Source: an uncultured Mycobacteriales bacterium (GTDB taxonomy: Bacteria; Actinomycetota; Actinomycetes; Mycobacteriales; CADCTP01). From it: a DNA stretch of 53,213 nt. Positions within the stretch are counted from its first letter, which is position 1. Each line of letters starts with the position of its first letter. The position numbers and the translations under genes were made by a program. The stretch covers positions 1-53,213 of the forward strand of contig CADCTP010000412.1 in assembly GCA_902805565.1 (NCBI GenBank), written 5' to 3'. This document shows, one piece after another, positions 6,386-52,973 of the stretch. The notes beneath the pieces are model-generated. The model searched no databases. It was given only the letters and a program-made list of their open reading frames with translations, and was not told the DNA's origin.

Positions 6386-6606
6386 GACACCTCGCTGCGG
6401 TGCGGTCGGGCGGTCGCCGACGGGACGACCTGCCGGCAGTGTCGCAGGACACCCGTGCCGGACCCATCCGGGTCGCCAGGAAGCAGACCGCCCGCCCGAT
6501 CCACCGGTGTCCCGGCGGATCGGACGGGCGTCGACCGTGTCGGCCCTCCGGTCGTCTTGCGGTACGCCGTTCGGCTCTCTACGGTTGTGTCGAGCCGCGG
6601 GCGGCG

Positions 6607-6750
6607 TCAGTTCTTGCCGATCACCCACCAGCAACCGCCGCAGATGGCGGTGTCCTGCTGGGCAGAGGCAGGCGTCGCGGTCGCGACCTGGACGGCGGCG
6701 GCGGCACCGAGGGCGACGGCGGCGGCGAGAAGGGCACGGACGAACTTCAC
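6607..6750 (-). CDS. small secreted peptide (47 aa; predicted mature 17-mer QQDTAICGGCWWVIGKN)
   Basis: The GTG at 6750 is preceded by AGGAGA with a 5-nt spacer (acAGGAGAtgccGTG). The product is VKFVRALLAAAVALGAAAAVQVATATPASA/QQDTAICGGCWWVIGKN. It has a classic n-h-c signal peptide with an A-S-A cleavage motif and GC-rich third positions. Confidence 0.55.
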   Translation of the reverse strand: MKFVRALLAAAVALGAAAAVQVATATPASAQQDTAICGGCWWVIGKN

Positions 6751-7283
6751 GGCATCTCCTGTATCGGCGAGGGTTTGGGGTTTGCGAGGTCGGACATAGC
6801 ATGCCATGAGTTGTCCGCTTCCGGTCACTTGTCAGTTTTGGCGATATCCGCCGTCCGCGACCGGTCGTGATCGAGACCCCCCGCTTTCGGGCACTCCGTG
6901 GCCGGTTCCGGACACCGCTCTGTCCGAGGACTGCCCACTCGTCCGGTTGCGGGTGGCCGGCCCGGCCGGGAACGGTCAGCCGGGGCCGGGGCTCTTGCCC
7001 TGATCACGGCCCGTGTCGCACGGTCATCGGGTCCGGGGTTCCCGCCCGTCGCCGCCCCCGTCCCGGTCGGGGCGCGGAGTCGGGCGCCCGGACCGCCGAC
7101 CGACCCGCTCGCGGGAAACCGGTCGACGTCCGCGGCCGGGCCCGGCCGGGCGTGTCCCCGCCCGGCCGGCCCGGACCCGGGCGTCGCCGGGATGCACCCT
7201 TGCGATGCGGGTCATCCCGCGTTGTCCGCATCGAGCTGCCCGGTTAGGGTCGGTGCCGTACCCGAGCGGGGGAGCGGCAATCG

Positions 7284-8261: not shown

Positions 8262-8285
8262 CCGCGGCGGACCGCCCCGCGGCGA

Positions 8286-9092
8286 TCAGGCCGCGGCGCC
8301 CAGCAGGAGCGGCAGGTAGCCGAGGGAGTAGCCGTTGCGGTTGGGGTGGTACGAGTCCCCGACCGGGAAGGTCGTCCCGTTCAGGTACGGCGACCACGAG
8401 CAGATCCCGTGCCCGGCGTACGTGCTGCGGGCGTCGAGGTAGGTGCCGCCGGCCGCCGCCACCCGCTGCGCGGTGACCGAGGACAGCAGGTCCGCCGTGG
8501 CGTTGATCCGGCTCCGCTTGGCGTTGCCGACCTCGAACAGGCAGTTGATCCCGTTGACCTGGAACAGCTGCGGGTAGCCGAGCACCACCAGCCGGGCGTT
8601 CGGCGCCCGCGCCTTGATATCGGCGTAGATGGCGTCCAGCCGGCCCGGCAGCGTCCCGGTGACGAAGGCGTTGACCGAGTCCAGCTTGCTGAAGCAGGTC
8701 GCGTCCGAGCCGAGCTTGCAGGTCAGCACGGTGCCGACGAAGTCGGCGTCGTTGCCGCCCACGGTGATCGTGACCAGGTCGGTGCCGGCGTTCAGGGCGC
8801 CGAGCTGGCCGCTGCGGACCGAGGACGTGGTGGCCCCGGCGCAGGCGGCGAAGGTGAAGCTGGCGGTGCCCCGCTGGGCCGCCCAGAGCGCCGGGTACGC
8901 CCGGGACGAGCGCTGGCAGGAGATGTCGAGGTCGTAGGAGTTGGTGCCGGTTCCGGAGGAGTACGAGTCGCCGAGCGCGACGTAGTCCGTGGTCGGGCCG
9001 GCGAAGGCGGCCGAGGGTGAGACGGCGGCGGGCACCGCGACCAGGCCGGCGCTGAGGGCGACGGTGGCGAGCGCGCGCAGGAGGGATCGCAT
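8286..9092 (-). CDS. secreted SGNH/GDSL lipase/esterase
   Basis: It has a signal peptide (MRSLLRALATVALSAGLVAVPAAVSPSAAFA). Block I is YVALGDSYSSG, block III is ITVGGND, and block V is DSYHPN. Confidence 0.85.
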   Translation of the reverse strand: MRSLLRALATVALSAGLVAVPAAVSPSAAFAGPTTDYVALGDSYSSGTGTNSYDLDISCQRSSRAYPALWAAQRGTASFTFAACAGATTSSVRSGQLGALNAGTDLVTITVGGNDADFVGTVLTCKLGSDATCFSKLDSVNAFVTGTLPGRLDAIYADIKARAPNARLVVLGYPQLFQVNGINCLFEVGNAKRSRINATADLLSSVTAQRVAAAGGTYLDARSTYAGHGICSWSPYLNGTTFPVGDSYHPNRNGYSLGYLPLLLGAAA

Positions 9093-39694: not shown

Positions 39695-39978
39695 CCGGCC
39701 ATCCTGGCGGGTCGCCGCCCGACCGGCTCCGCAGGGGTTGCCGGGCTCCTCGACCCGGACCCCACCTCCGGTCGCCCGGGACGCCGTCCGCTCCGGCGGG
39801 TCGCGACGGTGTGTTCCGATCAGGAGAATGTCGTGACAGTGCGTCAATTTCCTTGTTGGCACGCCTGCGCCGTGACAACGTCGACATCCCCGAGTGCTTC
39901 GGTCAGTGGTGGCCCCCCGGCCGCTTCCCGCCGCACATCGCCCGGGTTCCCTGCTCGGCAACGACGAATGGAGCGCAC

Positions 39979-40110
39979 ATGCCGGAGAACGCCGCCGCGG
40001 TCGCCGCGGACATCAGCTCGGAGGCCCTCGACTTCGACGCGGTCAGCGAGGACCTCAACTTCGACGTCGTGAGCCTCAACGAGGAACTGGCGATGCACAA
40101 CCGCAGCTAG
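39979..40110 (+). CDS. candidate RiPP precursor peptide (43 aa)
   Basis: The ATG at 39979 has a GGAG 6 nt upstream (aatGGAGcgcacATG). The product is MPENAAAVAADISSEALDFDAVSEDLNFDVVSLNEELAMHNRS. All codons but one end in G or C. There are 10 acidic residues, and the only Arg and His are in the last four residues. It sits at the head of an enzyme operon. Confidence 0.6.
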   Translation: MPENAAAVAADISSEALDFDAVSEDLNFDVVSLNEELAMHNRS

Positions 40111-40133
40111 CCGGCCGCAGCTAGCCGACGTGA

Positions 40134-40161
40134 GGTCCCGGGCGTCCCGGCGCCCGGGACC
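40134..40161 (+). promoter_or_regulatory. perfect 11-bp GC stem-loop 24 nt after the peptide ORF (attenuator or mRNA-stabilising hairpin candidate)
   Basis: The arm ggtcccgggcg (40134-40144) and the arm cgcccgggacc (40151-40161) are exact reverse complements, with the loop tcccgg. No T-tract follows. Confidence 0.55.
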
Positions 40162-40218
40162 CCGCCCGACGAGACACGTGGAGTCCCCATCACCTCGGCG
40201 ACCATCTCCCTGGACGCG

Positions 40219-41553
40219 ATGCCGCTGCTGCGCGACCCGCAGTTGTCCGTTGACTACAGCGCCCGATTGGTGGCGCAGGGAGTGCTGAGGCCGCTGTTCG
40301 CCGCCGACGCGGGCACCGGGCCGGGCTGCGCCACGCGGGCGAGCCGCCTCGACGGCGGTCGCCGGTGGCGGGTCGTCGTGGACGACGGGCTGCGCTGGTC
40401 CGACGGACGCCGGCTGCACGCCGAGGATCTGGCGGCCGGACTCACGCACGCCGTCCGCGGTCGCGCCGCCGGCGTCCGCGCCTTCATCTCCGGCGCCGAC
40501 GCCGAGCCCCCGATCCGGATCGTCGACCCGGTGACCGTGGAGTACCGCTTCGACCGGCCGGTCGCCTTCGCGACCGAACTGCTGTCGTCGCCCGGTTTCG
40601 CTCCTCGCCGGCCGGGTGTCGACCGGCGCGGTCGGCCACTGTCGCTCGGGCCGTTCACCGTCGCGAGCTGGACGCCGGACCGGATCGTCCTGGAGCGCAC
40701 AGGTGCCGGTGCGGGACCGGCGCGGGTGGCCTTCGTGCACGTGCCCTCGGCCGCCGAGACGGTCCGCCGGTACGACGCGGGCGAACTGGACGCGACCTCA
40801 CCCACCGGGTTCGGCGTCGAGCAGGTCCTGGGGCTCGCCGGGCGGACGGACGTGGTGTCCGCACCGGTGGACATCTTCGGCTCCCTGGACCTCGGCCGGC
40901 GGGCGCCGCGCTCCTGGCTGGCCACCGCCGCTGCCCGGCGTGCGGTCTCCGGGCTGCTGGACCGCCACCGGTTCGCCGCCGTCACGGCCGAGCTGGCCGA
41001 GCCGTGGCACTGGCCGGGCTCCGCCGCCCTGGGGCCCGGCGCGCCCGAGGACCCGACCGCGCCGGCGGACCGCGTCACCGGCCCGCTGGACATCGCGTAC
41101 GCGGATTTCGCGCCGAACGCGGAGCTCGTCACAGAACTGGCCGGGCAGCTCGGCGACGCGTTCGGGGTGCTGGTGTCGACCACCCGGTTGTCGTTCGAGG
41201 ACTACGTCCGGGCGACGGTCTCCCGGGACTACTGCCTGCTGTACTCGCTCACCCTGCCGGCTTTCGGCCACCCGGCCGGCTCGCTGTCGGACTGGCGATC
41301 GACCGGCCCGGCCGCCCGACGCGGTGGGGTTGCCGACCAGGTGCTCGACGCCCTGCTGGACGCCGCTGAGAGCTGCCCGGACCCGGCCGCCGCCGACCCG
41401 CTGTGGGCGGACGTCGCGGCCCGGTGGTGCGCGCTGCTGCCGCGGATCCCGCTGGTCCGGGTACGGGCCGTGTTCCTGCGCGGCCGCCGGTTGCCCGGCC
41501 TGACCGTGACCCGGAGCGGATTGCTGGCCTGCGCGGGAGCGTCGGCGTCGTGA
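40219..41553 (+). CDS. solute-binding protein family 5 (SBP_bac_5)-like protein without a signal peptide
   Basis: 444 aa. Family-typical stretches are RWRVVVDDGLRWSDGRRLHAEDL, IRIVDPVTVEYRFDRPVAFATELL and GPFTVASWTPDRIVLER. The upstream in-frame extension runs into the TAG of the peptide ORF with no ATG/GTG/TTG, so no signal peptide or lipobox is possible. Confidence 0.7.
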   Translation: MPLLRDPQLSVDYSARLVAQGVLRPLFAADAGTGPGCATRASRLDGGRRWRVVVDDGLRWSDGRRLHAEDLAAGLTHAVRGRAAGVRAFISGADAEPPIRIVDPVTVEYRFDRPVAFATELLSSPGFAPRRPGVDRRGRPLSLGPFTVASWTPDRIVLERTGAGAGPARVAFVHVPSAAETVRRYDAGELDATSPTGFGVEQVLGLAGRTDVVSAPVDIFGSLDLGRRAPRSWLATAAARRAVSGLLDRHRFAAVTAELAEPWHWPGSAALGPGAPEDPTAPADRVTGPLDIAYADFAPNAELVTELAGQLGDAFGVLVSTTRLSFEDYVRATVSRDYCLLYSLTLPAFGHPAGSLSDWRSTGPAARRGGVADQVLDALLDAAESCPDPAAADPLWADVAARWCALLPRIPLVRVRAVFLRGRRLPGLTVTRSGLLACAGASAS

Positions 41554-41585
41554 GCCGGCCCCGCCCGGCACGAGGAGGAGCACCC

Positions 41586-43472
41586 ATGGACGGCACCGAC
41601 GCGGACGTCTGGCTCGTCTTCCCACCGTTGATCGAGACCAACTTCGGCAGCTTCTACCCGTCGACGGCGGTGCTGGCCGCCTACCTGCATGCGCAGGGCC
41701 TCCGTGCCGACCAGGCCGACCTCAACGAGGACTTCGCGGTCTGGCTGTTGCGCAGCACCGTCGACGGCGTCCCGCTGGCCGGCACCCCGCCGCCGGCGGA
41801 GTCGACCGCCGCGGCCGCCGGCCGCTGGCTCGCCAGGTCCTGGCACAAGCTGGTCGAGGAGGACGGGCGGCACGGCTTCGGCCCGTCCTCCGACTACGGT
41901 CATGTGCTGCAATTGCTCGCCCGGCATTACGTGGTGGATCCGGACGAGGGGGTGCTGGACCGCGATCCGGCCGCGGTCGAGGGCGCGGCTCTCTACCGGC
42001 AGTTCTACGAGCAGGCGGGACTCGCCACCCGGATGCCCCCGGCGACCGCGCTGATCGGGATCTCGGTCCCGATGGGTCCGCAGCTGCTGCCGGCTCTGGA
42101 GCTCGCCGAGCAGCTCAAGCGACTGCGGCCGGCGGCGCCGATCGTCCTCGGCGGTCCCGCGCTGAGCCTGATGAGTCCGCCAGAGATCGAGCGGCTGCTG
42201 GTCGGGTGGGACGCGGTGGACGCGGTGGTCCGGTTCGACGGCGAGATCCCGTTGCACCAGCTGGCCGTGCAGGCGACGACGGGCCAGTGGCGACCGGAGG
42301 TGGTGCCCGGGGTGTCCTGCCGGGCCGCCGGCACGGTCCGGCACGTCCCGCCCGGCGCCGGGCCCGCCATCAACCTGCTGCCGGTCCCGGCCTATCCGGC
42401 ACCGGCGCTCGCCGTGCTCGGCGACCCGGTCCTCGGCGTCACGCAGGCCCGCGGCTGCTACTGGGGCAAGTGCGACTACTGCGACTTCGTCGAGCTGTAC
42501 GACGGCAGCCCACCATTCCGCGGTCGCCGTCCGGACGGCTTCGTCGCCGAGCTGCGGACGCTGGCCGACACCTTCGGCGTGTCGAAGTTCAGCTTCATCA
42601 CCGAGTCGATCCCGCCGGCGTTCGCCCGCAGGGTGTGCGCCGACATCCTCGCGCAGGGCTTGGACCTGCGGTGGAGCTCGTTCGCGATGGTCGACCGCCG
42701 ATTCGATCGGCAGTTGCTGGCCCTCATGGTCGAGGCCGGCTGCGAGTTCCTGACCATTGGCATGGAGACGACCGTCACCCGGGTGCTCAAGCTGGTGCAC
42801 AAGTCGGCCGACCGGGAGGAGAACCTCCGGTTCCTGGCCGACGCCCGCGATGTCGGGTTGCCACTCGTGATCAACTTGATACCGGACCTGCCCACCACCA
42901 CGTTCGACGAGGCGATGGGCGCGCTGGCCGACGTGCGGGAGTTCGCTCCGGGACTGCGGGCGGTGGCGGTGTTCCCCTTCGAGCCGACCCGCTCCTCCCA
43001 GGTCGGCCGGACACCCGAGTTGTTCGGTCTGGACGTCGGCGTGGCCGCGACCACCACCGGCCAGGCCGAGTACGCCCTCAACCACCTGGTCAGCAACGAC
43101 CCGGCGATGACCCCGGCGGAGCGGGCGGAGGTGCACCGCCAGTACCGGGCGTTCGCCGAGACGGTCAACGGCCGGCCGGCCGTCCTCCGGGCGTACGGTT
43201 CGGACGAGCTGCTCCGGGTGGCGGTGGAGGACCTGGACCTGCTCGACAGCGAGGCCGGGCTGGTCTGCACCAATCTCCGCACCCGGGCCCGGGCGGTGAT
43301 CCCGGAGCGGGTGGCCGGAATGGTCCGCCCGCACCTCGCCGGCCGGCCGTTCTCGCCGGCGACCATGCACCCGTCCCTCAGCCCGACGGGCGCGGCCCGG
43401 GTGCTCGCGAGCCTGGACCGGGTCGCGATGCTCGCCCCGCTCGGCCCCGGTGCGCGTGCCGCCGGTGGGTGA
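41586..43472 (+). CDS. B12-binding domain radical SAM enzyme (class B)
   Basis: The ATG at 41586 follows GAGGAGGAG. The gene is 628 aa. The N-terminal Rossmann-like segment VWLVFPPLIETNFGSFYPSTAVLAAYLHAQG is typical of B12-binding rSAM proteins. The cluster motif is ARGCYWGKCDYCDF (42456-42482). Later stretches are FLTIGMET and INLIPDLP. Confidence 0.85.
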   Translation: MDGTDADVWLVFPPLIETNFGSFYPSTAVLAAYLHAQGLRADQADLNEDFAVWLLRSTVDGVPLAGTPPPAESTAAAAGRWLARSWHKLVEEDGRHGFGPSSDYGHVLQLLARHYVVDPDEGVLDRDPAAVEGAALYRQFYEQAGLATRMPPATALIGISVPMGPQLLPALELAEQLKRLRPAAPIVLGGPALSLMSPPEIERLLVGWDAVDAVVRFDGEIPLHQLAVQATTGQWRPEVVPGVSCRAAGTVRHVPPGAGPAINLLPVPAYPAPALAVLGDPVLGVTQARGCYWGKCDYCDFVELYDGSPPFRGRRPDGFVAELRTLADTFGVSKFSFITESIPPAFARRVCADILAQGLDLRWSSFAMVDRRFDRQLLALMVEAGCEFLTIGMETTVTRVLKLVHKSADREENLRFLADARDVGLPLVINLIPDLPTTTFDEAMGALADVREFAPGLRAVAVFPFEPTRSSQVGRTPELFGLDVGVAATTTGQAEYALNHLVSNDPAMTPAERAEVHRQYRAFAETVNGRPAVLRAYGSDELLRVAVEDLDLLDSEAGLVCTNLRTRARAVIPERVAGMVRPHLAGRPFSPATMHPSLSPTGAARVLASLDRVAMLAPLGPGARAAGG

Positions 43473-44499
43473 GCCCGTCCTCCGGTTGCTGGACACGGTC
43501 GAGGTCGCCCCGGCGGTCCACGAGGAGGAGCCGACCCTGCTGGTCCGCGGCGACCGGATGCTGCGGATCCGCCGGCCGAGCCGGGCCGTGGCGGAGGCGC
43601 TGTCGATGCTCCGGCACGGTCTGGCCGAACCCGACATCACTGCCCCTGACGTACGGCGCCTGGTGGACGAGCTGTCCGGGCTCGGCTGGCTGACCGCGGA
43701 GCCGCCCTGGCCCGGTTCCGCGGCCGGGTGGGACCGGCAGGTCGGCTGGTGGTCGACGCTCACCGCCGACGGTCAGGCCGCGCAGCGCCGCGTGGCCGCC
43801 GCCGACGTGGCCGTCCTGGGGCTGGGCGGGATCGGCGCGCCGGTCGCGCAGCACCTCGCGGCCGGCGGCGTCGGCAGGCTCCGCCTGATCGACCCCGACG
43901 TGGTCGAGCCGCACAACCTCAACCGGCAGTACCTGTACGGCCGCGCCGACGTCGGCCGGGCCAAGGTGGACGCGGCGGCGGACGGGCTCGGCCGCCTGAC
44001 CGACACCGTCGGCCTGCAGCGGACCCGGCTCCGGGTCACCACCCCGGCGGACCTCGACGTGCTGCGCGGCAAGGTGGACCTGCTGGTGGTCGCGGCCGAC
44101 CGGCCCGCCGACCTGATGGACACCGTCTGGGCCTGGGCGGCGCCTCGGGGGGTGCCGGTCCTCGGTTCCGGGGTGGGCCTGGGCACCGGCTACTGGGGGC
44201 CGCTGCTCGACCCGCGCCGGGGCCACTGCTGGCCGTGCACCGAGCGGGCCCGGCGGCACCGGCTGAGCGCCGACGAACGCCGGCTGGAGGACCGCGGCGG
44301 CCCCACGCCGTACTCCTTCGGCCCGACGAACGCGATCATCGCCGACCATGTCGCCCGGGACGGGCTGCTGTTCCTCGCGCTCGGCCGGTGCATCAGCCTG
44401 GACCGTCGGGTCCTGCTCGACGTGGTCGGGATCCCGGCCGGCGGGGCGCCGCAGGCCGCCGGGTCTCCCGGATGTCGGCACACCGGGGGAACAGCATGA
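43450..44499 (+). CDS. E1/ThiF-family adenylating enzyme with a PqqD-like (RRE-like) N-terminal extension
   Basis: The nucleotide-binding motif is VAVLGLGGIGAPVAQHLAAGGVG (43819-43836 encodes GLGGIG), followed by RLIDPDVVEPHNLNRQYLY, VVAADRPAD and a CxxC (GHCWPC). N-terminal residues 10-85 (...RAVAEALSMLRHGLAEPDITAPDVRRLVDELSGLGWL) resemble PqqD/RRE. The start is GTG 43450 or 43465, and both overlap the rSAM 3' end. Confidence 0.8.
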   Translation: MRVPPVGEPVLRLLDTVEVAPAVHEEEPTLLVRGDRMLRIRRPSRAVAEALSMLRHGLAEPDITAPDVRRLVDELSGLGWLTAEPPWPGSAAGWDRQVGWWSTLTADGQAAQRRVAAADVAVLGLGGIGAPVAQHLAAGGVGRLRLIDPDVVEPHNLNRQYLYGRADVGRAKVDAAADGLGRLTDTVGLQRTRLRVTTPADLDVLRGKVDLLVVAADRPADLMDTVWAWAAPRGVPVLGSGVGLGTGYWGPLLDPRRGHCWPCTERARRHRLSADERRLEDRGGPTPYSFGPTNAIIADHVARDGLLFLALGRCISLDRRVLLDVVGIPAGGAPQAAGSPGCRHTGGTA

Positions 44500-46253
44500 T
44501 CGTCCTGGGGCTGTCGGCGCTGTACCACGACTCGGCGTGCGCGGTCTTCCGCGACGGCCGGCTGGTCGCGGCCGCGCAGGAGGAGCGGTTCACCCGGCGC
44601 CGGTTCGACCCGGCGATGCCGGTCCGGGCGGTCCGGGCCTGCCTGCGCGACGCCGGCCTCGGGATCGGCGACGTGGACCACGTCGCGTACTACGAGGACC
44701 CGGTGGGCAAGTTGAGCCGGCAACTGTGGATGGGCCTGCCCGCAGTCCCGGATGCGTCCCGGCGAACGCTGTTCCGGTTGGATGCGCGCCGCCCGGCCCG
44801 GCAGATCGAGGAACTGCTCGGGTATCCGGGTCCGGTCACCTTCGTCCCGCACCACGAGTCGCACGCGGCGAGCGCCTTCCACCAGTCCGGCTTCTCCGAC
44901 GCCGCGCTGTTCACGGCGGACGCGGTCGGCGAGTGGGCCACCACCAGCTACGGCACGGGCGGACCGAACCGGTTCGAGCTCTTCGAGCAGGTCGACTTCC
45001 CGCACTCGCTAGGCATCCTCTACAGCGCGGTCACGTCGTTCCTCGGCTTCGCGGTCAACAGCGACGAGTACAAGGTGATGGGGCTCGCGCCGTACGGGAC
45101 GCCGCGGTACGCCGACCGGCTGCGCGGGCTGCTGACCGACCTGCCGCGTGGGCAGTTCCGGTTGGACCAGGACTGCTTCGACCTCAGTGGGCGGTCGCCG
45201 ATGTACACGGCGGCGCTGGGCGAGCTGCTCGGCGCGGAGCCCCGGGAGCCGGAGTCCGCGCTGTCCGCCGCACACTCCGATCTGGCGGCCAGCGTGCAGC
45301 TCGTACTGGAGGACATCCTGCTGGCCAAGCTCCGCTTCCTGCACGCCGAAACCGGACTCGGGCGGCTCTGCTACGCCGGCGGGGTCGCGCTGAACTGCGT
45401 CGCCAACCGGGTGATCCGGGAGCGGGGCCCGTTCGCCGAGGTCTTCGTGCAGCCGGCGGCCGGGGACGCCGGCGCCGCGATCGGAGCGGCCGCGCTGGTC
45501 AGTGCCCGGCTCGGCGCGGGGGTCCGGCCGGAGCGGCTGACCGACGTACGGCTCGGACCGGCGCCCGACCTCGGGCCGGTGGCGGCCTGGCTGGCCGCGG
45601 CAGGCGTGCCGTTCGAGGCCCACACGGACGATGAGGCGGGACTGGTCGGGCGGGCCGCCGAGGAGTTGGCGGGGGGAGCGGTGCTGGGGTGGTTCCAAGG
45701 ACGGATGGAGTTCGGCCCGCGGGCGCTCGGGGCCCGCTCCATCCTCGCCGATCCGCGCCGTGGTGACATGCGCGACCACATCAACGCGCTGGTCAAGAAG
45801 CGCGAGGCGTTCAGGCCGTTCGCGCCGGCGGTGGTGGCCGAGCGTGCCGGCGAGTTCTTCGGGCTGGCCGGCGACTCGCCGTTCATGCTCTTCACCGCCG
45901 ATGTCCGCGAGCCGGCCGCGCTGCCCGCGGTCACCCACGTCGACGGCAGCGCTCGCGTGCAGACGGTGGACCGGGCGGTGGATCCGCGGTTCCATGCGCT
46001 GCTCACCGCCTTCGGTCGCCGCACCGGGTTCCCGGTGCTCCTCAACACCTCCTTCAACATGCGCGGCGAGCCGATCGTCGCGACCCCGGCCGACGCGCTG
46101 GCCTGCTTCGTACGGTCCCGGCTGGACGTGCTCGTCCTCGGGGACCTGGTCGTCCGGGCGGCGGACCTTCCCGCGCACTGGGCCGGCCTGGTGGACCAGC
46201 AGTTGCCGTACCAGCTCCCGACCCTGGACCGCGATGTCTACTCCTTCCTCTGA
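44496..46253 (+). CDS. NodU/CmcH-family carbamoyltransferase
   Basis: The ATG at 44496 overlaps the ThiF-like stop (ATGA). The N-terminus is MIVLGLSALYHDSACAVFRDGRLVAAAQEERFTRRRFD. Other typical stretches are HHESHAASAF, the YAGGVALNCVAN context and the C-terminal LLNTSFNMRGEPIVATPADALACF. Confidence 0.9.
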   Translation: MIVLGLSALYHDSACAVFRDGRLVAAAQEERFTRRRFDPAMPVRAVRACLRDAGLGIGDVDHVAYYEDPVGKLSRQLWMGLPAVPDASRRTLFRLDARRPARQIEELLGYPGPVTFVPHHESHAASAFHQSGFSDAALFTADAVGEWATTSYGTGGPNRFELFEQVDFPHSLGILYSAVTSFLGFAVNSDEYKVMGLAPYGTPRYADRLRGLLTDLPRGQFRLDQDCFDLSGRSPMYTAALGELLGAEPREPESALSAAHSDLAASVQLVLEDILLAKLRFLHAETGLGRLCYAGGVALNCVANRVIRERGPFAEVFVQPAAGDAGAAIGAAALVSARLGAGVRPERLTDVRLGPAPDLGPVAAWLAAAGVPFEAHTDDEAGLVGRAAEELAGGAVLGWFQGRMEFGPRALGARSILADPRRGDMRDHINALVKKREAFRPFAPAVVAERAGEFFGLAGDSPFMLFTADVREPAALPAVTHVDGSARVQTVDRAVDPRFHALLTAFGRRTGFPVLLNTSFNMRGEPIVATPADALACFVRSRLDVLVLGDLVVRAADLPAHWAGLVDQQLPYQLPTLDRDVYSFL

Positions 46254-48249
46254 GCCGGGTCGGCGGCCGGCCGGCCGGCACCGCCGCCGTGTCGACCGGC
46301 TCGCCCGCCTGCTCGCCGACGAGCGAGGCACCGAGCTGCTCGCCGAACTGCAGAAGCTCGGCCTCGAGGCCGGCCCCACCGGGTCCCGGCCGGCCGCCGG
46401 CGCCGCGCCGGCGGTGGCCGCGGTCGGTGTCTGGTGGGTGCTCCCCACCCCGTCCGGTCCGGAGCTGCGTCGACGGGAGCTGCCCGCGGAGGAGCTGCGC
46501 GGGTGGGCCGACGTCGAGCACGTCCCTGCCGCCGGGGAGGCGATACGGGTGGTGTTGCTGGGCGAGTCCACCGCCCGCGGCTTCCTGCTGGACCCGGTGT
46601 TCACCCCGGCCGTGGCGCTGCAGGACCGGCTGGATGCCGGCGGCGCGTACCAGGTCGTGGACCTCGCCCACGTCGGCGCGGACGCACGCGACCTGACCGA
46701 GGTCGCATCGGCGCTGCCGGCGCTGGAGCCGGACGTGGTGGTGGTGCTCGCCGGCAACAACTGGGCCCGGCCGCGGCACACCCCGGGGTCGCTCGACCTG
46801 CTGGCCGGCGCGCTGCGGGAGGGCGGCTACCCGGCGCTGCGCCGTGCGCACGCCGAGGGCGTCGTGGCACCGGGGATCGAGCGGGCGCTGGACGCGCTCG
46901 CGGCAGTGCCCGCGGCGCGGGTGGTCGTGGTGGTGCCCGAGTTCAACACCGGCGGTTGGGCGCCGGACCCGGAGCTGGAGCTGCCACCGCTGGCGCCGGC
47001 CGACCTGCGATCGTGGACGGCGCTGCGCAGGGCGGCCGAGACCGCGCTGGCGACCGGCGACCTGGCCGGGGTGCGCGCCGCGACGACTGCCATGACCCGG
47101 CTGGACGCCGGCACCAGCCCGGTCCCGGGCCGGCTGCGGGCGCTCGCCGCCACCGATCCGGACGAGGTCCGTACCGCCCTGGAGGAGTCCCGGGACGCGG
47201 GGACCGGCCTACTCACCACGCACACCCCGCGGCTCACCGCCGACGTCCGGGCCCGGTTGCTCGCCGGTGCCCGCCGCCGCGGCTTCGACGTGCTCGACCT
47301 CGCCCCGGTGCTGCGGGCCCACCCGGACGCTCCCTGCCCGGACCCCGACCTGTTCCTGGACTACTGCCACCTCAGCGCCCGGGGGACGGCCACGGTGACA
47401 GCGGCGGTGGCGGATGTGCTGACCGGTCGGCCGCCCGGTACGACCCCACCGGCGGGCTTGCCGACGCCGGACGACTCGGCGATCGCCGACCTGCTGGCCG
47501 CCGTCCACAACAGCTACTACGGCCAGTCGCGGGAGCGGGTCGAGGAACTGGTGCGGCGCGCGGTCAAGGAGAGTCCGGCGGGCCGGGAGTTCGCTGTCGC
47601 GTTGCGTGACCTGCTCGGTAGTGCGGGACCGGTGTGGACCTCACCCACGCTGCAGGTCCTGCTCCGGCGACCCCATGCCGCCCGCTACCTCGCGCCGCTG
47701 CTGTCCCGGGAGGCCGGGACGCTCGGGGTGTGGGGCCTGCGCGCGGCACTGCTGGCCGAGCTGGGCCCGCCCCCGACCACGCCGCCCCCACCCACGGTCG
47801 TGGATCTGCTCCGCGCCGCCGAACAGGGCCTGCTGGACGGCGCTTTCCGCTCGGTCACCCAGCAGCCGGAACGGTCGTTCTTCCGCGCGTTCGGAGTCGA
47901 GTCGCATTTCGGCTTCGCCCTTCCCGCTGCCAACGCGTCCGGGCGTATTCGCGTGACCGGTCGGGTACCGGCCGCGCTCGATCCGGCCGCACCGGTGCAC
48001 GTCCTGGTGAACGACTGCCCGATCGGCACCGTTCCGGCCGGTCCGGGCTGGAGTGCCGCGGACATTGTCGTGCCGCCCGGGGTGCTCCGGCCGGGAATTA
48101 ACGATCTGATGATCCGATGGCCGACGGGCGGCGCGGACTGGAAGAACCGGCAGCTCACAGACGCGCGGGCACTGGCCTGCGGGGAGTACCCGACGGTGCT
48201 CGCCGTTCAGGGTGAGGTCTTCGATATCCTGTTGGAACTCGACCGGTGA
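46234..48249 (+). CDS. SGNH-hydrolase-fold protein with a large uncharacterised C-terminal region
   Basis: The ATG at 46234 overlaps the carbamoyltransferase by 20 nt (alternative GTG 46291). SGNH-like block I is IRVVLLGESTARG, block III is VLAGNNW, and block V is LDYCHLS. The C-terminal region of about 300 aa has no motif I recognise. Confidence 0.65.
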   Translation: MSTPSSEPGRRPAGRHRRRVDRLARLLADERGTELLAELQKLGLEAGPTGSRPAAGAAPAVAAVGVWWVLPTPSGPELRRRELPAEELRGWADVEHVPAAGEAIRVVLLGESTARGFLLDPVFTPAVALQDRLDAGGAYQVVDLAHVGADARDLTEVASALPALEPDVVVVLAGNNWARPRHTPGSLDLLAGALREGGYPALRRAHAEGVVAPGIERALDALAAVPAARVVVVVPEFNTGGWAPDPELELPPLAPADLRSWTALRRAAETALATGDLAGVRAATTAMTRLDAGTSPVPGRLRALAATDPDEVRTALEESRDAGTGLLTTHTPRLTADVRARLLAGARRRGFDVLDLAPVLRAHPDAPCPDPDLFLDYCHLSARGTATVTAAVADVLTGRPPGTTPPAGLPTPDDSAIADLLAAVHNSYYGQSRERVEELVRRAVKESPAGREFAVALRDLLGSAGPVWTSPTLQVLLRRPHAARYLAPLLSREAGTLGVWGLRAALLAELGPPPTTPPPPTVVDLLRAAEQGLLDGAFRSVTQQPERSFFRAFGVESHFGFALPAANASGRIRVTGRVPAALDPAAPVHVLVNDCPIGTVPAGPGWSAADIVVPPGVLRPGINDLMIRWPTGGADWKNRQLTDARALACGEYPTVLAVQGEVFDILLELDR

Positions 48250-49571
48250 CTGTTCCGGAGAAGAGTCGGACAAGGGACGGGGAACGCTTCATGCGCCGGT
48301 CGTCCCTGCGGGGAACGGGCTTCTTCACGATCTGGTTGGGCGAGTCCCTCTCGCTCGTCGGGGCCCAGGTGACGTTCTTCGCGTTACCGCTGGTCGCCAT
48401 TCTCGCGCTGGACGCGGACGCGCTCGGGATGGGTCTGCTCACGGCGGCCGGATCGCTCGCCGTGCTGCTGCTCGCCCCGTCGATCGGGGTCTGGGCCGAC
48501 CACCACGAGCGCCGCACCACCATGGTGGTGGCGAACCTTGCCCGGGGCCTGCTGCTGGGCACCGTCCCTCTCGCGTACGTCCTCGACGCGCTCACCCTGC
48601 CGCTGCTGATCGCGGTGGCCTTCGGGGTCGGGGCGCTGACCCTCCTGTTCGACAGCGCCATGTCCTCGTACGTGCCGGCCCTGGTCGGACCGAAGCGGCT
48701 GGTGGCCGCGAACTCCTGGATGCAGAGCAGCATCTCGGTGGCGGACACCGCCGGCCCGGGCCTGGCCGGACTGCTGGTGCAGGTGCTCGGGGCGCCGATC
48801 GCGGTCCTCGCCGACGCGCTGAGCTACCTCGCCAGCACGGTGGCGCTGCTCGCGTCGCCCCGGGTCGGCAAGCCCCCGGAGCCGGCCGAGCGGGAGTTGC
48901 ACTGGGCCGCGATCAAGCAGGGCCTGCGGATCGTGCTCACCGACCGGATCCAGCGCCCGCTGGCGCTCGCCGCCGGTCACTTCAACCTTTTCACCTCCAT
49001 GTTCTTCACGCTCTACCTGCTCTTCCTGGTACGGACGCTGGACTTCAGCCCGCTGCTGATCGGCCTGCTGAACATCGCAGGTGGCGTGGCCGGCCTGACC
49101 GGCGCCGGGATCAGCGCCCGGCTCGCCCGTCGCTTCGGCTACGGCCCGGTGCTCACGGTCGTCTACGCCCTGCCCGGGGTCGCCGCACTGCTGGTGCCGC
49201 TGGCCGGCCGGGTCGGCCCGGTGTCCGGCGCGCTGCTCGTCGCCGCGTCCAGCGCCCTGTGGTCCGGCTCGGTGATCGTCAACCTGGTGCTGAGCGAGTC
49301 GATCAAGCAGGCGCTGGTGCCGCACCACCTGCTCGGTCGGGCCACGTCGATCATCCGGTTCATCAGCTTCGGGGTGGAGCCGATCGGGGCGCTGCTGGGT
49401 GCCGCGCTGGTCGGGCTCGGCCTCAGCCTCGGCGGCACCCTGGCCGTGGCGTCCATCGGGGTCGGTAGCAGCGCGGTGTGGCTGCTGGCCAGCGGCGTCG
49501 CCAAGTTGCAGGACCCGGTGTCGCCCGCACCCGCGCCGACGCCGGCCGGCACCGCACCCGAGGAGGTCTGA
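48246..49571 (+). CDS. MFS transporter (EntS/MFS_3-like efflux type)
   Basis: The GTG at 48246 overlaps the upstream stop (GTGA). The gene is 441 aa with about 12 hydrophobic segments. The N-terminal pattern FFTIWLGESLSLVGAQVTFFALPLVA and the stretch WADHHERRTTMVVANL are typical of the MFS_3 group. Confidence 0.85.
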   Translation: MTVPEKSRTRDGERFMRRSSLRGTGFFTIWLGESLSLVGAQVTFFALPLVAILALDADALGMGLLTAAGSLAVLLLAPSIGVWADHHERRTTMVVANLARGLLLGTVPLAYVLDALTLPLLIAVAFGVGALTLLFDSAMSSYVPALVGPKRLVAANSWMQSSISVADTAGPGLAGLLVQVLGAPIAVLADALSYLASTVALLASPRVGKPPEPAERELHWAAIKQGLRIVLTDRIQRPLALAAGHFNLFTSMFFTLYLLFLVRTLDFSPLLIGLLNIAGGVAGLTGAGISARLARRFGYGPVLTVVYALPGVAALLVPLAGRVGPVSGALLVAASSALWSGSVIVNLVLSESIKQALVPHHLLGRATSIIRFISFGVEPIGALLGAALVGLGLSLGGTLAVASIGVGSSAVWLLASGVAKLQDPVSPAPAPTPAGTAPEEV

Positions 49572-51205
49572 TGGGCTACATCGACGTGCAGAGCGTCGGC
49601 TACACGCTGTCCGACGGCCGCGTCCTGTTCGACGACGTGTCCTTCCGGGTCGGGGAGGGCAGCAAGACCGCCCTGATCGGCGCCAACGGCACCGGCAAGA
49701 CCACGCTGCTGCGGATGATCGCCGACGACCTGCGGCCGAGCACCGGCACCATCGCCCGCAAGGGCGGACTCGGGGTCATGCGGCAGTTCATCGGCTCCGT
49801 CCGGGACGGCACCGAGGTGCAGGACCTGCTGCTCGGGCTGTCCGGTCCGGACCTCCGCGGCAGCGGCGCCCGCCTGGCCCGGACGGAGCTGGCGATGATG
49901 GAGCGCGACGACGAGCCGGCCCAGATGGCGTACGCGCAGGCGCTGGCGGACTGGGGCGACGCCGGCGGCTACGAGGCGGAGACGCTCTGGGACGTCTGCA
50001 CCACGCTCGCGCTGGGCCAGTCCTTCGACGCGTGCCGTTACCGGAAGGTCGCGACCCTGTCCGGCGGCGAGCAGAAGCGGCTGGCGCTGGAGGTCCTGCT
50101 GCGCGGCACCGACCAGGTGCTGCTGCTCGACGAGCCGGACAACTACCTCGACGTGCCCGGCAAGCGCTGGCTGGAACAGGCGCTGGCCGAGTCGCCGAAG
50201 ACGGTCCTGCTGGTCAGTCACGACCGGGAGTTGCTGGCCAACACCACCTCCCGGCTGGTCACCCTGGAGGCACACGGCGCGTGGGTGCACGGCGGCGCCA
50301 CCAGCCGGGCCACCTGGGAGAGCTACCCGAAGGCCCGGCAGGACCGCCGCGAGCGGCTGGCCGAGCTGCACCGGCGCTGGGACGAGGAGCACGAGCGGCT
50401 GCGCCAGCTGGTCCTCACGCTCCGGGAACAGGCCAAGATCAGCCCGGCGATGGCGTCGAAGCTGGCCGCGACCGAGACCCGGCTCGCCCGGTTCGAAGCG
50501 TCCCCGCGGCCGGCCGAGCAGCCGGTCGAGCAGAAGGTCACGATGCGGCTGCGCGGCGGCCGTACCGGGGTGCGGGCGCTGGCCTGCGAGTCCCTCGAGC
50601 TCACCGGTCTCATGCGGCCCTTCGACCTGGCCGTGGACTACGGGGAGCGCATCGCGGTGCTGGGCAGCAACGGCTCCGGCAAGTCGCACTTCCTCCGCCT
50701 GCTCGCCGGCCAGCCGGTCGCGCACACCGGGGCCGTACGGCTCGGCGCCCGGGTGGTGCCCGGCTGGTTCGCCCAGACCCACGAGCAGCCCCAACTCGCC
50801 GACCGGACGGTGGTGGAGATCCTGCACCGCGGCGAGGGCGGGCGGTCCGGACTCGACCGGGGCGCTGCGATGGGTGCGCTGCGCCGCTACGAGTTGGATG
50901 TCGCCGCGGACCAGACCTTCCCGTCGCTGTCCGGAGGCCAGCAGGCGCGGCTGCAGGTGCTGCTGCTGGAGCTGTCCGGCTGCACGATGCTGCTGCTGGA
51001 CGAGCCGACGGACAACCTGGACCTGGCCTCCGCAGAGGCGCTGGAGCAGGGGCTGCAGGGTTTCGACGGCACGGTGCTGGTGGTCACGCACGATCGCTGG
51101 TTCGCCCGGGGTTTCGAGCGCTTCCTGGTCTTCGGCGCCGACGGCCGCGTGTACGAGTCGAGCGAGCCGGTGTGGGACGAGGCGAGGGTCGCCCGGGCCC
51201 GGTGA
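49571..51205 (+). CDS. ABC-F family ATPase (two ABC domains, no TM domain)
   Basis: The ATG at 49571 shares its A with the MFS stop (TGATG) and follows GAGGAGG. Walker A motifs are GANGTGKTT and GSNGSGKSH. Signature motifs are LSGGEQKRLAL and LSGGQQARLQV. The inter-domain linker is charged and helical. Confidence 0.9.
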   Translation: MGYIDVQSVGYTLSDGRVLFDDVSFRVGEGSKTALIGANGTGKTTLLRMIADDLRPSTGTIARKGGLGVMRQFIGSVRDGTEVQDLLLGLSGPDLRGSGARLARTELAMMERDDEPAQMAYAQALADWGDAGGYEAETLWDVCTTLALGQSFDACRYRKVATLSGGEQKRLALEVLLRGTDQVLLLDEPDNYLDVPGKRWLEQALAESPKTVLLVSHDRELLANTTSRLVTLEAHGAWVHGGATSRATWESYPKARQDRRERLAELHRRWDEEHERLRQLVLTLREQAKISPAMASKLAATETRLARFEASPRPAEQPVEQKVTMRLRGGRTGVRALACESLELTGLMRPFDLAVDYGERIAVLGSNGSGKSHFLRLLAGQPVAHTGAVRLGARVVPGWFAQTHEQPQLADRTVVEILHRGEGGRSGLDRGAAMGALRRYELDVAADQTFPSLSGGQQARLQVLLLELSGCTMLLLDEPTDNLDLASAEALEQGLQGFDGTVLVVTHDRWFARGFERFLVFGADGRVYESSEPVWDEARVARAR

Positions 51206-51250
51206 GCCGGCCCGGCGGGCGACATCCATCCTGATCGAGGGAGAGCAGCG

Positions 51251-51973
51251 ATGACCGCAGCAGTCACCGACGCGACCGTCCGGGCGGCCGCGGCCGCGCA
51301 CCGCCGGGCGTTGATCGAGCAGTTCACCGGTCCGGTGGTCGCCGAGGCGGTCCGGCGGATCGGCCCGGCCGGCAGGGACATCCTCACCCCGATGTCCCTG
51401 CTGCCGCCCGAGCGGACCGAGCCGCTGCTGGCCTGCCTGAGCGAGCAGCAGGCGTGGCGGCAGGAGAAGTGGCTGATCTTCCCGGACGAGAGCGTGCGGA
51501 TGTGCTCCGACGAGGAGTTCGCCGCCGCCGCGCCGCACACGCGCTTCTCCTACAACGACTGCCTGCGCTCGCTGCCGAAGGACGCCTACCCGGTGCGCGG
51601 CCTGCTGTCGGCGATGGAGAGCCCCGAGGTGGCCGCCGCGCTGTCCGAGGCGTACGGGGCGGGGATCGAGCTCAAGGGCATCGACATGGCCCGCTACACC
51701 GAGGGCCACTACCTGCGCCGGCACGCGGACACCTTCGCCGACCGGCGCTTCGGGTTCATCTTCTTCGTGTCCGACGGCTGGGTGCCGGGCAGCGGCGGCG
51801 AGCTCGTCGTGGAGGCGCCGAGCGGCGAGGCGCGGGTCGCCTACCCGGTGCGCGGCGACGTGGCGCTGCTCCGGATCAGCCCGGGCTTCCAGCACGAGGT
51901 CTGCCAGGTCCGCTCCGCCACCTGGACCCGCTACGTGCTGTCGATCCACTTCGGCATCCGCGCCGGGGGCTGA
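51251..51973 (+). CDS. 2OG-Fe(II) oxygenase superfamily protein
   Basis: 240 aa. The HxD is in GHYLRRHADTF, the distal His is in GFQHEV, and an Arg lies in TRYVLSIHF. These are consistent with the prolyl-hydroxylase-like 2OG oxygenase fold. Confidence 0.65.
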   Translation: MTAAVTDATVRAAAAAHRRALIEQFTGPVVAEAVRRIGPAGRDILTPMSLLPPERTEPLLACLSEQQAWRQEKWLIFPDESVRMCSDEEFAAAAPHTRFSYNDCLRSLPKDAYPVRGLLSAMESPEVAAALSEAYGAGIELKGIDMARYTEGHYLRRHADTFADRRFGFIFFVSDGWVPGSGGELVVEAPSGEARVAYPVRGDVALLRISPGFQHEVCQVRSATWTRYVLSIHFGIRAGG

Positions 51974-51974
51974 G

Positions 51975-52973
51975 GTGCCGAACCGGACCCTGGGCAGGTC
52001 CGGGCTGCGGGTGTCGCCGGTCGCGCTGGGCACCATGAACTTCGGCTCCGCCGCCGGTGTGCCGATCTGCTCGCCGGCGGTCGCGAGCCGCATCGTGGGC
52101 GAGTTCCTCGATGCCGGCCACACGCTGATCGACACGGCCGACAAGTACAACGGCGGCGAGGCGGAGGAGATCGTCGGCGCCGCGATCCGGGGCAGGCGGG
52201 AATCGGTTCTGCTGGCCACGAAGGCCGGCCACCCCACCGGCGCCGGTCCCAACGACCGCGGGTTGTCCCGCGCGCACCTGACCCGGGCGCTGGAGGCGAG
52301 CCTGCGCCGGCTGGGCACCGACCACGTCGACCTCTACCAGTGCCACGTCCCCGACCCCGACACGCCCATCGAGGAGACCATGGCGACGCTGGACGGCTTC
52401 GTCCGTGCCGGCAAGGTCCGCTACCTGGGTTGCTCGAACTTCACCGCGGCGCAGCTGGTGGAGGCGCAGTGGGCGGCGCAGCGGATCGGCGGGGCGCCCC
52501 TGGTCAGCCACCAGGCGCAGTACTCGCTGGTCGACCGGACGATCGAGGCCGAGATCCTCCCGGTCTCCGGCCGGCACGGTCTCGGCACGCTGACCTGGAG
52601 CCCGCTGGGCGCCGGGGTGCTCGCCGGCCGGTACCGGCGGGATGCTCCGCCGCCCCCGGACAGCCGGCTCGGCCGGGTGACCGCCTCTTCGGCCCGGCTC
52701 GGCCGCTACTGGGCTCTCGACCTGCTGGCCGAGCGGAAACTGCGGATCGCCGACGAGGTGAGCCGGGTCGCCGCGGAGCTCGGCGCGCCGGCCGCCGCGG
52801 TGGCGGTGGCCTGGCTGCGGGACCGGACCGGCGTCAGCTCGATCGTCGTCGGACCCCGCACCCCGGACCAGCTCGGCGACTACCTCGCCGGCATGGGGCT
52901 CACCCTGCCCCCGGAGGCCGGGACCGCCCTCGACCACGTCTCCCGTCCGGGGTCGGCCGTCCGGGGGGCCTGA
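51975..52973 (+). CDS. aldo/keto reductase
   Basis: The GTG at 51975 lies 1 nt after the upstream stop. The N-terminus is RTLGRSGLRVSPVALGTMNFG. Other typical stretches are IDTADKYNGGEAEEIVG, VDLYQCH, RYLGCSNF and the SIVVGPRTPDQL context. Confidence 0.9.
   Translation: MPNRTLGRSGLRVSPVALGTMNFGSAAGVPICSPAVASRIVGEFLDAGHTLIDTADKYNGGEAEEIVGAAIRGRRESVLLATKAGHPTGAGPNDRGLSRAHLTRALEASLRRLGTDHVDLYQCHVPDPDTPIEETMATLDGFVRAGKVRYLGCSNFTAAQLVEAQWAAQRIGGAPLVSHQAQYSLVDRTIEAEILPVSGRHGLGTLTWSPLGAGVLAGRYRRDAPPPPDSRLGRVTASSARLGRYWALDLLAERKLRIADEVSRVAAELGAPAAAVAVAWLRDRTGVSSIVVGPRTPDQLGDYLAGMGLTLPPEAGTALDHVSRPGSAVRGA

Follow-up and report, generated by a model that had tools for sequence, protein, structure and literature searches.

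A conserved actinomycete operon pairs a predicted MccB-type enzyme with an OppA-fold protein and points to a new branch of ThiF-type ribosomal peptides

Results

The operon and its precursor gene

The DNA analysed here is a 53,213-nucleotide stretch from an uncultured Mycobacteriales bacterium (contig CADCTP010000412.1; hereafter the window), and our subject is an operon on its + strand, at positions 39979-52973, in which a small acidic open reading frame (ORF) precedes genes for an SBP5-like protein, a radical S-adenosylmethionine (rSAM) enzyme, a ThiF-like enzyme and a set of tailoring, export and putative resistance proteins (Table 1). Because the window is about 75% GC, genes were called by third-position GC and every junction was then checked directly on the sequence. 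The operon consists of ten ORFs, each free of internal stops. A gap of 108 nt separates the small ORF from the SBP5-like gene and one of 32 nt separates the latter from the rSAM gene; the rSAM and ThiF genes overlap by 23 nt, the ThiF and carbamoyltransferase genes through ATGA, the carbamoyltransferase and SGNH-like genes by 20 nt, the SGNH-like and MFS genes through GTGA, and the MFS and ABC-F genes by 1 nt within TGATG. The ABC-F gene is followed after 45 nt by that of a 2-oxoglutarate (2OG) oxygenase, and this after 1 nt by that of an aldo-keto reductase (AKR). The original prediction of a single, tightly coupled operon was reproduced in layout, overlaps and coordinates, save that it had counted eleven ORFs. 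Its domain assignments were likewise borne out by Pfam and NCBIfam searches of the operon proteins, which returned SBP_bac_5, Radical_SAM with B12-binding, ThiF, Carbam_trans_N/C, a weak GDSL, MFS_1/MFS_3, two ABC_tran stretches, 2OG-FeII_Oxy_3 and Aldo_ket_red, the B12-binding and GDSL scores lying slightly under the Pfam cut-offs.

Table 1. Features of the operon region, in window coordinates.
Feature	Position	Strand	Basis or remarks
Predicted precursor peptide gene	39979..40110	+	43 aa; ATG start; homologous ORFs upstream of SBP5 gene
Perfect GC-rich hairpin, no U tract	40134..40161	+	Between precursor gene and enzyme genes
SBP5-like protein (SBP_bac_5), OppA/DppA fold	40219..41553	+	Pfam PF00496, 1.9e-20
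Class B (B12-binding) rSAM enzyme	41586..43472	+	Pfam PF04055, PF02310
MccB-type two-domain ThiF enzyme	43450..44499	+	Pfam ThiF, 1.3e-32; AlphaFold2/Foldseek match to MccB
NodU/CmcH-type O-carbamoyltransferase	44496..46253	+	Pfam PF02543, PF16861
SGNH-like protein, 671 aa	46234..48249	+	Pfam PF13472, 1.2e-6, below cut-off
MFS exporter (MFS_3/EntS-like)	48246..49571	+	Pfam PF07690, PF05977
ABC-F ATPase, 544 aa, two nucleotide-binding domains, no membrane domain	49571..51205	+	Pfam, two ABC_tran stretches
Prolyl-hydroxylase-like 2OG/Fe(II) oxygenase	51251..51973	+	Pfam PF13640
AKR, last operon gene	51975..52973	+	Pfam PF00248, 1.4e-67

The small ORF encodes MPENAAAVAADISSEALDFDAVSEDLNFDVVSLNEELAMHNRS, a peptide with a net charge of -9 and a C-terminal Arg-Ser, and has a Shine-Dalgarno GGAG at 39970-39973, 6 nt 5' of its ATG. 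A search with the ThiF protein gave about 45 close relatives, almost all of them actinomycete, and a scan of one genome per species gave 28 actinomycete loci (L001-L028). An ORF lies directly upstream of the SBP5 gene in all 24 precursor-bearing actinomycete loci (the window and 23 others), and the expectation that a small ORF with a conserved C-terminus would co-occur with the enzymes thus held in every full-core actinomycete locus as well as in more distant clades. When the 24 actinomycete peptides are aligned from their stop codons, not one indel occurs across the last 18 residues and a fixed register is kept: L(-18), F(-16), L(-11), [N/S](-10), [E/D](-9), L(-7), [A/G/V](-6), R(-2) and [C/S/T](-1), or in short L-x-F ... 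L-[NS]-[ED]-x-L ... R-[C/S/T]-stop. The peptides fall into three core types, N-R-[C/S] (the clade of the window), H-R-[C/S] and V-R-[S/T]. An acidic residue stands at -9 in all 24 and also in the more distant L052, L053 and L055; across all clades the only invariant positions are R(-2) and [C/S/T](-1). In the window the leader motif is duplicated in tandem (LDFD/LNFD; LDFDAVSED followed by LNFDVVS at 40024-40077), a duplication that among the relatives seen is found only in the closest one, P0273, which also has the same last 14 residues.

By its codon patterns the small ORF is under purifying selection. Synonymous to non-synonymous codon changes number 9:1, 7:0 and 6:2 in close precursor pairs, differences fall mostly at the third codon position (2912 vs 1520 and 1930 at the other positions) and third-position GC is 0.86-1.0, while the 66 nt 3' of the precursor stop show no third-position bias. 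Together with synteny in 23 further species this selection rules out chance, and the region is strongly supported, at the level of sequence, as a real biosynthetic operon for a peptide made on the ribosome and modified post-translationally (RiPP). A profile search with the precursor reached 35 database clusters, in which every name given by the source is "hypothetical protein"; the 28 that were retrieved all end in R-[C/S/T] save two apparent read-through artefacts.

The perfect hairpin predicted after the small ORF was found as well, with a stem of 11 pairs (12 by RNAfold). Stems of at least 10 perfect pairs recur between the precursor and enzyme genes in at least 12 of 25 loci and, since their sequences are unrelated, it is the position that is conserved. 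The fold of the whole 121-nt intergenic region is not significantly more stable than its shuffles (z = -1.6), and the evidential weight lies only in the local perfect stem and its conserved position. The hairpin probably adjusts the amount of precursor relative to the enzymes, whether as a partial terminator or as a stem that stabilises the mRNA; in mcc a hairpin, the mccA-mccB terminator, also follows the precursor gene. Neither a sigma-70 promoter nor a U-tract terminator was detected by scanning the surroundings of the peptide gene and the stretch 3' of the AKR gene, a result that is expected at 75% GC and is uninformative.

A predicted ThiF enzyme and its OppA-fold partner

The ThiF protein is predicted to consist of a RiPP recognition element (RRE), or peptide clamp, at the N-terminus (about residues 10-80), and an E1/ThiF adenylation domain. 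Its profile matches MccB best among PDB entries (1e-45), followed by E1 enzymes and PaaA (3e-26). The AlphaFold2 model (pLDDT 90) shows an N-terminal domain of the order beta-beta-beta-beta-alpha-alpha, and Foldseek aligned it with MccB over its full length including the N-terminal clamp (345-360 columns, TM score 0.74) and next with PaaA, at a sequence identity to MccB of only 21-22%. A PqqD-like recognition element had been predicted for this protein. The Pfam PqqD model (PF05402) does not match it, but the model superposes on the clamp of MccB, and because this match is full-length we take the protein to be a clamp/RRE plus E1 enzyme despite the silence of the PqqD model. GxGGxG, NLNRQ (with R159), K172 and D217 are invariant in the family, and CxxC and C342 are nearly so (at least 90%). 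The spacing of R159, K172 and D217 is that of the ATP- and Mg-binding residues reported for EnfB; the enzyme looks active, its predicted ATP/Mg site being intact. One match of the ThiF profile, P0212, is a 619-aa fusion of ThiF to a class I methyltransferase; MccB-methyltransferase fusions are known from some microcin C-like clusters.

The AlphaFold2 model of the SBP5-like protein (pLDDT 83.5) was matched by Foldseek to OppA, MppA and DppA with TM scores of 0.74-0.81, the matches including the clavulanate protein OppA2 bound to arginine. No signal peptide or lipobox was found in any family member, and the gene adjoins or is fused to the ThiF gene in every informative context sampled; from these features we assign the protein as a cytoplasmic, obligate partner of the ThiF enzyme. 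Adjacency, translational coupling and a natural fusion suggest that the two proteins work as a complex. Homology of the SBP5-like protein ("ISLDAMPL...") reaches five codons upstream of ATG 40219, where ATC 40189, with a GGAG five bases before it (40180-40183), is the sole candidate for an in-frame start, and the gene may therefore use this non-canonical start.

Distribution and variants of the family

Searches by tblastn with the ten window proteins over the 24 precursor-bearing actinomycete loci, the window included, found SBP5, rSAM, ThiF and MFS in 24 of 24. The core of small ORF, SBP5-like protein, B12-rSAM, MccB-type RRE-E1 ThiF enzyme and MFS thus recurs in 23 other actinomycete species, and the operon is, from these gene counts, a conserved core with clade-specific tailoring genes. 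The enzyme set had been proposed as one unit: the core holds as such, and the carbamoyltransferase, SGNH protein, 2OG oxygenase and AKR are by the same counts clade-specific additions outside it. Other clades carry extras of their own, namely an M16 peptidase, an additional B12-rSAM, a methyltransferase of class I, or between one and three 2OG oxygenases resembling prolyl 4-hydroxylase.

The family extends beyond actinomycetes. In Pontibacillus litoralis (L029) the order is ABC-F, a 19-aa peptide MKIEELELDRTAEMLTHRT, a hairpin, ThiF, SBP5-like and MFS, with further ORFs that by eye read as cupin/JmjC-like and methyltransferase-like. A contig of 59% GC (L055) has a fragment of an ABC gene, a peptide ending in ...DFEFDRERLSDFLTMTHRT, SBP5, 2OG, rSAM and ThiF. 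On a metagenome contig of 51% GC (L052) a natural RRE-ThiF::SBP_bac_5 fusion of 863 aa (6001-8592) is preceded by two precursors of 89-94 aa, ending in ...LSDVVSLKHRS and ...LNDVVSLRHRS, and followed by genes for an rSAM, a 2OG oxygenase, a GNAT and a B12-rSAM. L053, with a peptide ending in ...GDLFIVSHRS, encodes a Pfam-silent 453-aa protein that hhalign matched to the SBP5-like family at 99.6% probability. The more remote clade L048-L050 (32% ThiF identity) has the order small ORF, B12-rSAM, SBP5, ThiF, and peptides ending in ...LIIARRC. A ThiF profile search over 1.84 billion representatives gave 1126 proteins at E <= 1e-30; the best 150 of these, which each represent one 50%-identity cluster, reach 190 bits or more and for the most part match full-length.

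In Allokutzneria and Actinocatenispora (L020 4389-12035, and L013) the ThiF-SBP5 pair lies beside an aminotransferase, a stand-alone AMP-binding enzyme, an O-methyltransferase and an ORF that by eye reads as a peptidyl carrier protein (PCP)-like protein, a setting reminiscent of non-ribosomal peptide synthetases (NRPS). The pair may also work in a non-ribosomal setting.

The ABC-F protein and its probable role in self-protection

The ABC-F protein has the general features of its family, two nucleotide-binding domains with a linker and no transmembrane domain. Among NCBIfam models it scores 263 bits with the ribosomal-protection-like NF000355 (cut-off 380), 219 bits with the producer-type TlrC/CarA/OleB/SrmB model (cut-off 800) and 197 with EttA. 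Producer-type ABC-F proteins (OleB, CarA, SrmB, TlrC, LmrC) are likewise soluble proteins with two nucleotide-binding domains that are encoded inside actinomycete biosynthetic clusters, and the best NCBIfam matches are ribosomal-protection families, yet the window protein stays below all curated cut-offs. Of the 24 actinomycete loci, 18 have an ABC-F gene within 10 kb, and one is also present in the Pontibacillus locus. Mainly on account of its persistence in the cluster from Pontibacillus to Streptomyces, a product aimed at the ribosome is predicted: the ABC-F protein probably protects the ribosome of the producer, and the product of the cluster probably inhibits the ribosome. A link between a ThiF-type RiPP and an ABC-F protein is, to our knowledge, without precedent. 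Some non-actinomycete relatives (L052 11560-12363, L053 5538-6350 and the context of P0200) have a GNAT rather than an ABC-F beside ThiF, a hint that they may protect themselves in another way, like MccE or TfxH.

Tailoring enzymes and exporter

The rSAM enzyme, present in all 24 peptide-bearing actinomycete loci, finds its best NCBIfam matches in the RiPP C-methyltransferase model TIGR03975 and in ApyD, both far below the cut-offs, and only marginal matches in a sequence search of the PDB; it probably acts as a peptide C-methyltransferase. For its cluster motif it has CYWGKCDYC (Cx4Cx2C; residues 291-299, window 42456-42482) instead of the canonical Cx3Cx2C. This motif is identical in 7 of 7 actinomycete orthologues checked, and the distant clade L048 has a canonical CTYKCKFC. 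Streptomyces sp. 8L carries a second, divergently oriented B12-rSAM paralogue (L001 3532-5388, - strand) just upstream of its precursor gene, with 50% identity to the window's enzyme.

The closest solved relatives of the carbamoyltransferase are NovN (2e-109), GdmN and TobZ. Its gene is confined to the N-R-[C/S] clade and to downstream positions in some H-R-C loci, and in the window's clade (L001-L005, L051) it is always accompanied by that of the SGNH-like protein. The latter combines a weak SGNH/GDSL hydrolase domain with a long C-terminal region that matches no recognised fold, and searches of the PDB and NCBIfam gave no match. The MFS gene follows the ThiF block in every peptide-bearing actinomycete locus. 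The 2OG oxygenase, of which most related loci have one to three paralogues, is probably a hydroxylase of peptide residues; its best PDB match is 4iw3 (1e-5), which we take to be a Pseudomonas putida prolyl hydroxylase, the search output naming no protein. The 2OG-AKR pair after the ABC-F gene is found only in L001 and L002. A locus of the V-R-S clade has an M16 insulinase-type peptidase directly after MFS (L016 12542-13840), a candidate leader peptidase with no equivalent in the window.

Discussion

Relation to known ThiF-type systems

RRE-fused ThiF/E1 enzymes define a recognised RiPP group, according to two reviews of 2025 (PMC12596934, PMC12250964). Its reactions there are the phosphoramidate of MccB, the indolizidinone of PaaA, the thiolactone of GrcB, the cyclic imide of EnfB and the indolylamide of IndF, with the oxazolone of OxzB as a ThiF-like reaction outside RiPPs; actinomycetes, B12 enzymes and solute-binding proteins go unmentioned in one of the reviews and in the sections consulted of the other. 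The cluster has both features of the group that a sequence can reveal, an RRE-fused E1 with intact ATP/Mg residues and an adjacent conserved precursor, and we place it as a new branch of the ThiF-like adenylyltransferase RiPPs, besides microcin C, pantocin A, GRC, enterofaecin and Ind. The RiPP logic of the original prediction, an acidic precursor at the head, an active-looking E1 enzyme carrying an RRE, and export and resistance genes, therefore stands, and the class-defining enzymes that it had listed as missing (YcaO, LanB/C/M, lasso, SPASM, ATP-grasp, P450) are indeed absent from the operon and from the 20 other ORFs scanned in the window. Its statement that the genes fit no RiPP class went too far, as the RRE-fused ThiF/E1 enzyme itself defines a group, with MccB as the closest solved structure. 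In agreement with it, searches of the literature and NCBIfam turned up no characterised pathway with this gene set. No model in NCBIfam release 20 covers the precursors, the SBP5-like partner or the ThiF clade, and the literature yielded ThiF-RiPP reviews and no report of the family, although subscription journals were thinly covered and a report may exist.

Compared by its description, streptococcal GRC (GrcA/GrcB) resembles the cluster in its RRE-fused ThiF-like enzyme, in a short precursor ending in Arg-Cys and in co-encoded rSAM enzymes, as well as in the chemistry proposed here, an ATP-dependent carboxylate activation followed by attack of the terminal side chain. It differs in that the acid lies 4 positions before the terminus, whereas in the cluster it lies 8 before it (at -9), the G at -3 is replaced by H, N or V, and the terminus may be Ser or Thr, the window ending in Ser. 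The Grc pair of epimerase and dehydrogenase rSAM enzymes is replaced by one class B (B12) rSAM, neither a stand-alone RRE nor the Rgg of the Rgg/SHP quorum sensing of GRC is present, and the obligatory OppA-fold partner, ABC-F and MFS are additional. Enterofaecin (EnfB) and Ind (IndF) likewise involve a single ATP-dependent activation of a C-terminal carboxylate and an intramolecular ring closure, with the same spacing of R, K and D. Their nucleophiles are a backbone amide and the Trp indole, respectively, their precursor motifs (WWIVI; Trp) differ from ours, and they come from minimal Firmicute clusters that lack rSAM, SBP5 and ABC-F. Pantocin A (PaaP/PaaA), whose product is a peptide-derived small molecule, shares the RRE-E1 enzyme, PaaA being the second-best solved homologue; its Glu-Glu-Asn core is not conserved here (the window has E-E-L at -9 to -7) and its tailoring and export genes are others. 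Membership of the LAP/TOMM group, in which a YcaO cyclodehydratase works with an E1-like protein that is inactive, is contradicted by the lack of YcaO in the same ORFs and by the intact E1 active site. The trifolitoxin-like tiarins (bioRxiv 10.64898/2025.12.02.691738) looked promising through their Arg, C-terminal Cys and optional ThiF, and were rejected because they are defined by TfxB/C and a conserved Gln: the cluster has neither a TfxB/TfxC nitroreductase-like pair nor a conserved Gln.

Proposed pathway

We favour, with moderate confidence, a pathway of the ThiF-like adenylyltransferase type whose product would inhibit translation. The clamp of the ThiF enzyme would bind the L-x-F leader motif while the OppA-fold partner holds the C-terminal tail of the precursor, the E1 domain would adenylate a carboxylate near the precursor C-terminus, and the side chain of the terminal Cys, Ser or Thr would close a ring. 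The alternation of the final residue between Cys, Ser and Thr suggests that the side-chain heteroatom acts as a nucleophile or a leaving group. Two versions appear about equally likely. In the more specific one a GrcB-like nine-residue (thio)lactone would join Asp/Glu(-9) to the terminal residue; in the other the alpha-carboxylate would be adenylated, with subsequent ring closure or elimination via the terminal residue and perhaps the invariant Arg, and might belong to a route that builds a small molecule on a scaffold peptide, as in fosfazinomycin. A precedent for the former is the GrcB reaction, in which Glu35 is linked as a thiolactone to the C-terminal Cys39 of the precursor GrcA, which ends in G-R-C, and the Glu/Asp(-9) geometry fits all 24 actinomycete peptides as well as L052, L053 and L055. 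The core would further be C-methylated by the rSAM enzyme, hydroxylated by the oxygenase and O-carbamoylated by the carbamoyltransferase, the leader would be removed (some relatives encode an M16 peptidase that could do so) and the MFS pump would export the product. Protection of the producer's ribosome by ABC-F would in turn imply that the product inhibits translation.

Several observations weigh against this pathway. We first favoured a universal Glu/Asp(-9) lactone and downgraded it, as peptides of the R-R-C clade carry Met at -9 and lack any acid within 20 residues, the Pontibacillus peptide has its acid (Glu) at -7, and the L054 peptide has Gly at -9 with acids at -10 and -5; a lactone from Glu/Asp to the terminal residue is therefore not family-wide. 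The ABC-F protein scores under every NCBIfam resistance cut-off, its closest PDB relative is the housekeeping protein YbiT, and 6 of 24 actinomycete loci lack its gene within 10 kb. No precursor or R-[C/S/T] peptide was found at L013 (a truncated 7.9-kb contig), L020, L021 or L023, and the ThiF relatives at L013, L020 and L023 count against the pathway. The SBP5-like protein could serve immunity rather than catalysis. Finally, the product, its mass shift and its activity are all hypothetical, the chemistry being deduced from genes.

More tentatively, and with rather low confidence, we speculate that the RRE-E1 enzyme and its OppA-fold partner carry out a C-terminal chemistry unlike the five ThiF-like RiPP reactions, one that needs the Arg-(Cys/Ser/Thr) end, and that the product belongs to a new class of ribosome-targeting antibiotics with ABC-F self-protection. 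If true, no earlier ThiF-type RiPP would have had the ribosome as its target, a cytoplasmic solute-binding-protein fold would for the first time take a catalytic or chaperone part in RiPP maturation, and the family could give a new antibiotic scaffold together with a sixth type of ThiF-like reaction. The resistance gene would predict the large ribosomal subunit as the target. The clade of the window would add O-carbamoylation, which we know from no characterised RiPP. Should these readings hold, a large and phylogenetically broad ThiF-type branch awaits its first product, with a fixed 18-residue register ending in Arg-Cys/Ser/Thr as a rule for finding precursors and a new enzyme partnership between an E1 and a cytoplasmic OppA-fold protein, fused in one relative.

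Alternative readings

One possibility, which we hold to be real though less probable than the pathway above, is that the peptide serves as a scaffold for a small molecule, much as with PQQ, mycofactocin, pantocin or fosfazinomycin. The product would then retain no more than the final two to five residues (x-x-[H/N/V]-R-[C/S/T]), which would be tailored on and cut from the scaffold after the E1 domain had adenylated the terminal alpha-carboxylate as in MccB, EnfB, OxzB and TcdA; an oxazolone or dehydro-amino-acid, an N-acyl diketopiperazine, or an acyl-guanidine or amide could result. Such a route would agree with the invariance over all clades of R(-2) and [C/S/T](-1) only and with the missing nearby acid in the R-R-C clade, and the alpha-carboxylate is the canonical substrate of E1 enzymes, including the closest structure, MccB. 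Residues -3 to -5 also co-vary with the sets of tailoring genes, OppA-fold proteins bind short peptides (one match being clavulanate OppA2 with arginine), the nearest relatives of the carbamoyltransferase act on small molecules, and fosfazinomycin offers a precedent built on the C-terminal Arg of a 22-mer. It leaves unexplained, however, why residues -18 to -6 are conserved like the tail, including the acid at -9 in most clades, and it gives the terminal side-chain nucleophile no role unless as a leaving group; a dedicated protease is missing from the window, and no known metabolite emerged as a candidate. The fosfazinomycin pathway itself was rejected: its concept of a scaffold peptide with a C-terminal Arg is similar, but it uses an asparagine-synthetase-like enzyme. 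Among Arg-containing ribosome inhibitors, TAN-1057, the tuberactinomycins, negamycin (Kitasatospora purpeofusca) and apidaecin with its C-terminal H-P-R-L were considered, and none fits the gene set.

A Trojan-horse peptidyl-nucleotide of the microcin C kind, with a C-terminal nucleotide and proteolysis after uptake that leads to inhibition of an aminoacyl-tRNA synthetase, is improbable. Microcin C7 (MccA/MccB) does resemble the cluster, since MccB is the closest homologue by structure, clamp included, and by sequence, both clusters have an MFS exporter (MccC in mcc) and a hairpin after the precursor gene, and the GNAT next to ThiF in non-actinomycete relatives recalls immunity by MccE or TfxH. 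MccB chemistry, with its succinimide and N-P bond, needs a terminal Asn, however, and the precursors end in Cys, Ser or Thr and never in Asn (N-R-S in the window, R-[C/S/T] in relatives). They are also much longer than MccA and have a separate leader motif. The rSAM and the obligatory OppA-fold partner have no counterpart in mcc clusters, neither an MccD-type tailoring enzyme, an MccE-type acetyltransferase or an MccF-type peptidase in the scanned ORFs nor an extra aminoacyl-tRNA synthetase in the window was found, and ABC-F points to the ribosome rather than to a synthetase.

Least probable is a non-peptide metabolite such as a carbamoylated nucleoside or aminoglycoside-like antibiotic with an incidental or regulatory small ORF, for although NovN, GdmN and TobZ act on small molecules, ABC-F genes are typical of macrolide and lincosamide producers, and at L020 and L013, where no precursor was detected, the pair neighbours a PCP-like ORF and a stand-alone adenylation enzyme, the small ORF keeps its position, register and C-terminus across phyla under purifying selection, the ThiF enzyme has a leader-binding clamp, the operon lacks sugar, nucleoside, polyketide synthase or NRPS genes, and the carbamoyltransferase is absent from most family members.

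Genomic surroundings

Upstream of the operon lie housekeeping genes, for a DUF7059 methyltransferase, a rhodanese, Dtd, a sigma-70 factor, a Pat-like acetyltransferase, a deacetylase and a DtxR-family repressor, and the AKR gene is followed by a convergent - strand ORF that by eye reads as cold-shock-like. The unrelated upstream genes and the convergent ORF set the bounds of the cluster at 39979-52973, and the remaining ORFs scanned elsewhere in the window have no relation to it. Far upstream and unrelated to the operon, at 1940-4454, a circularly permuted ATP-grasp protein adjoins a transglutaminase-like protein.

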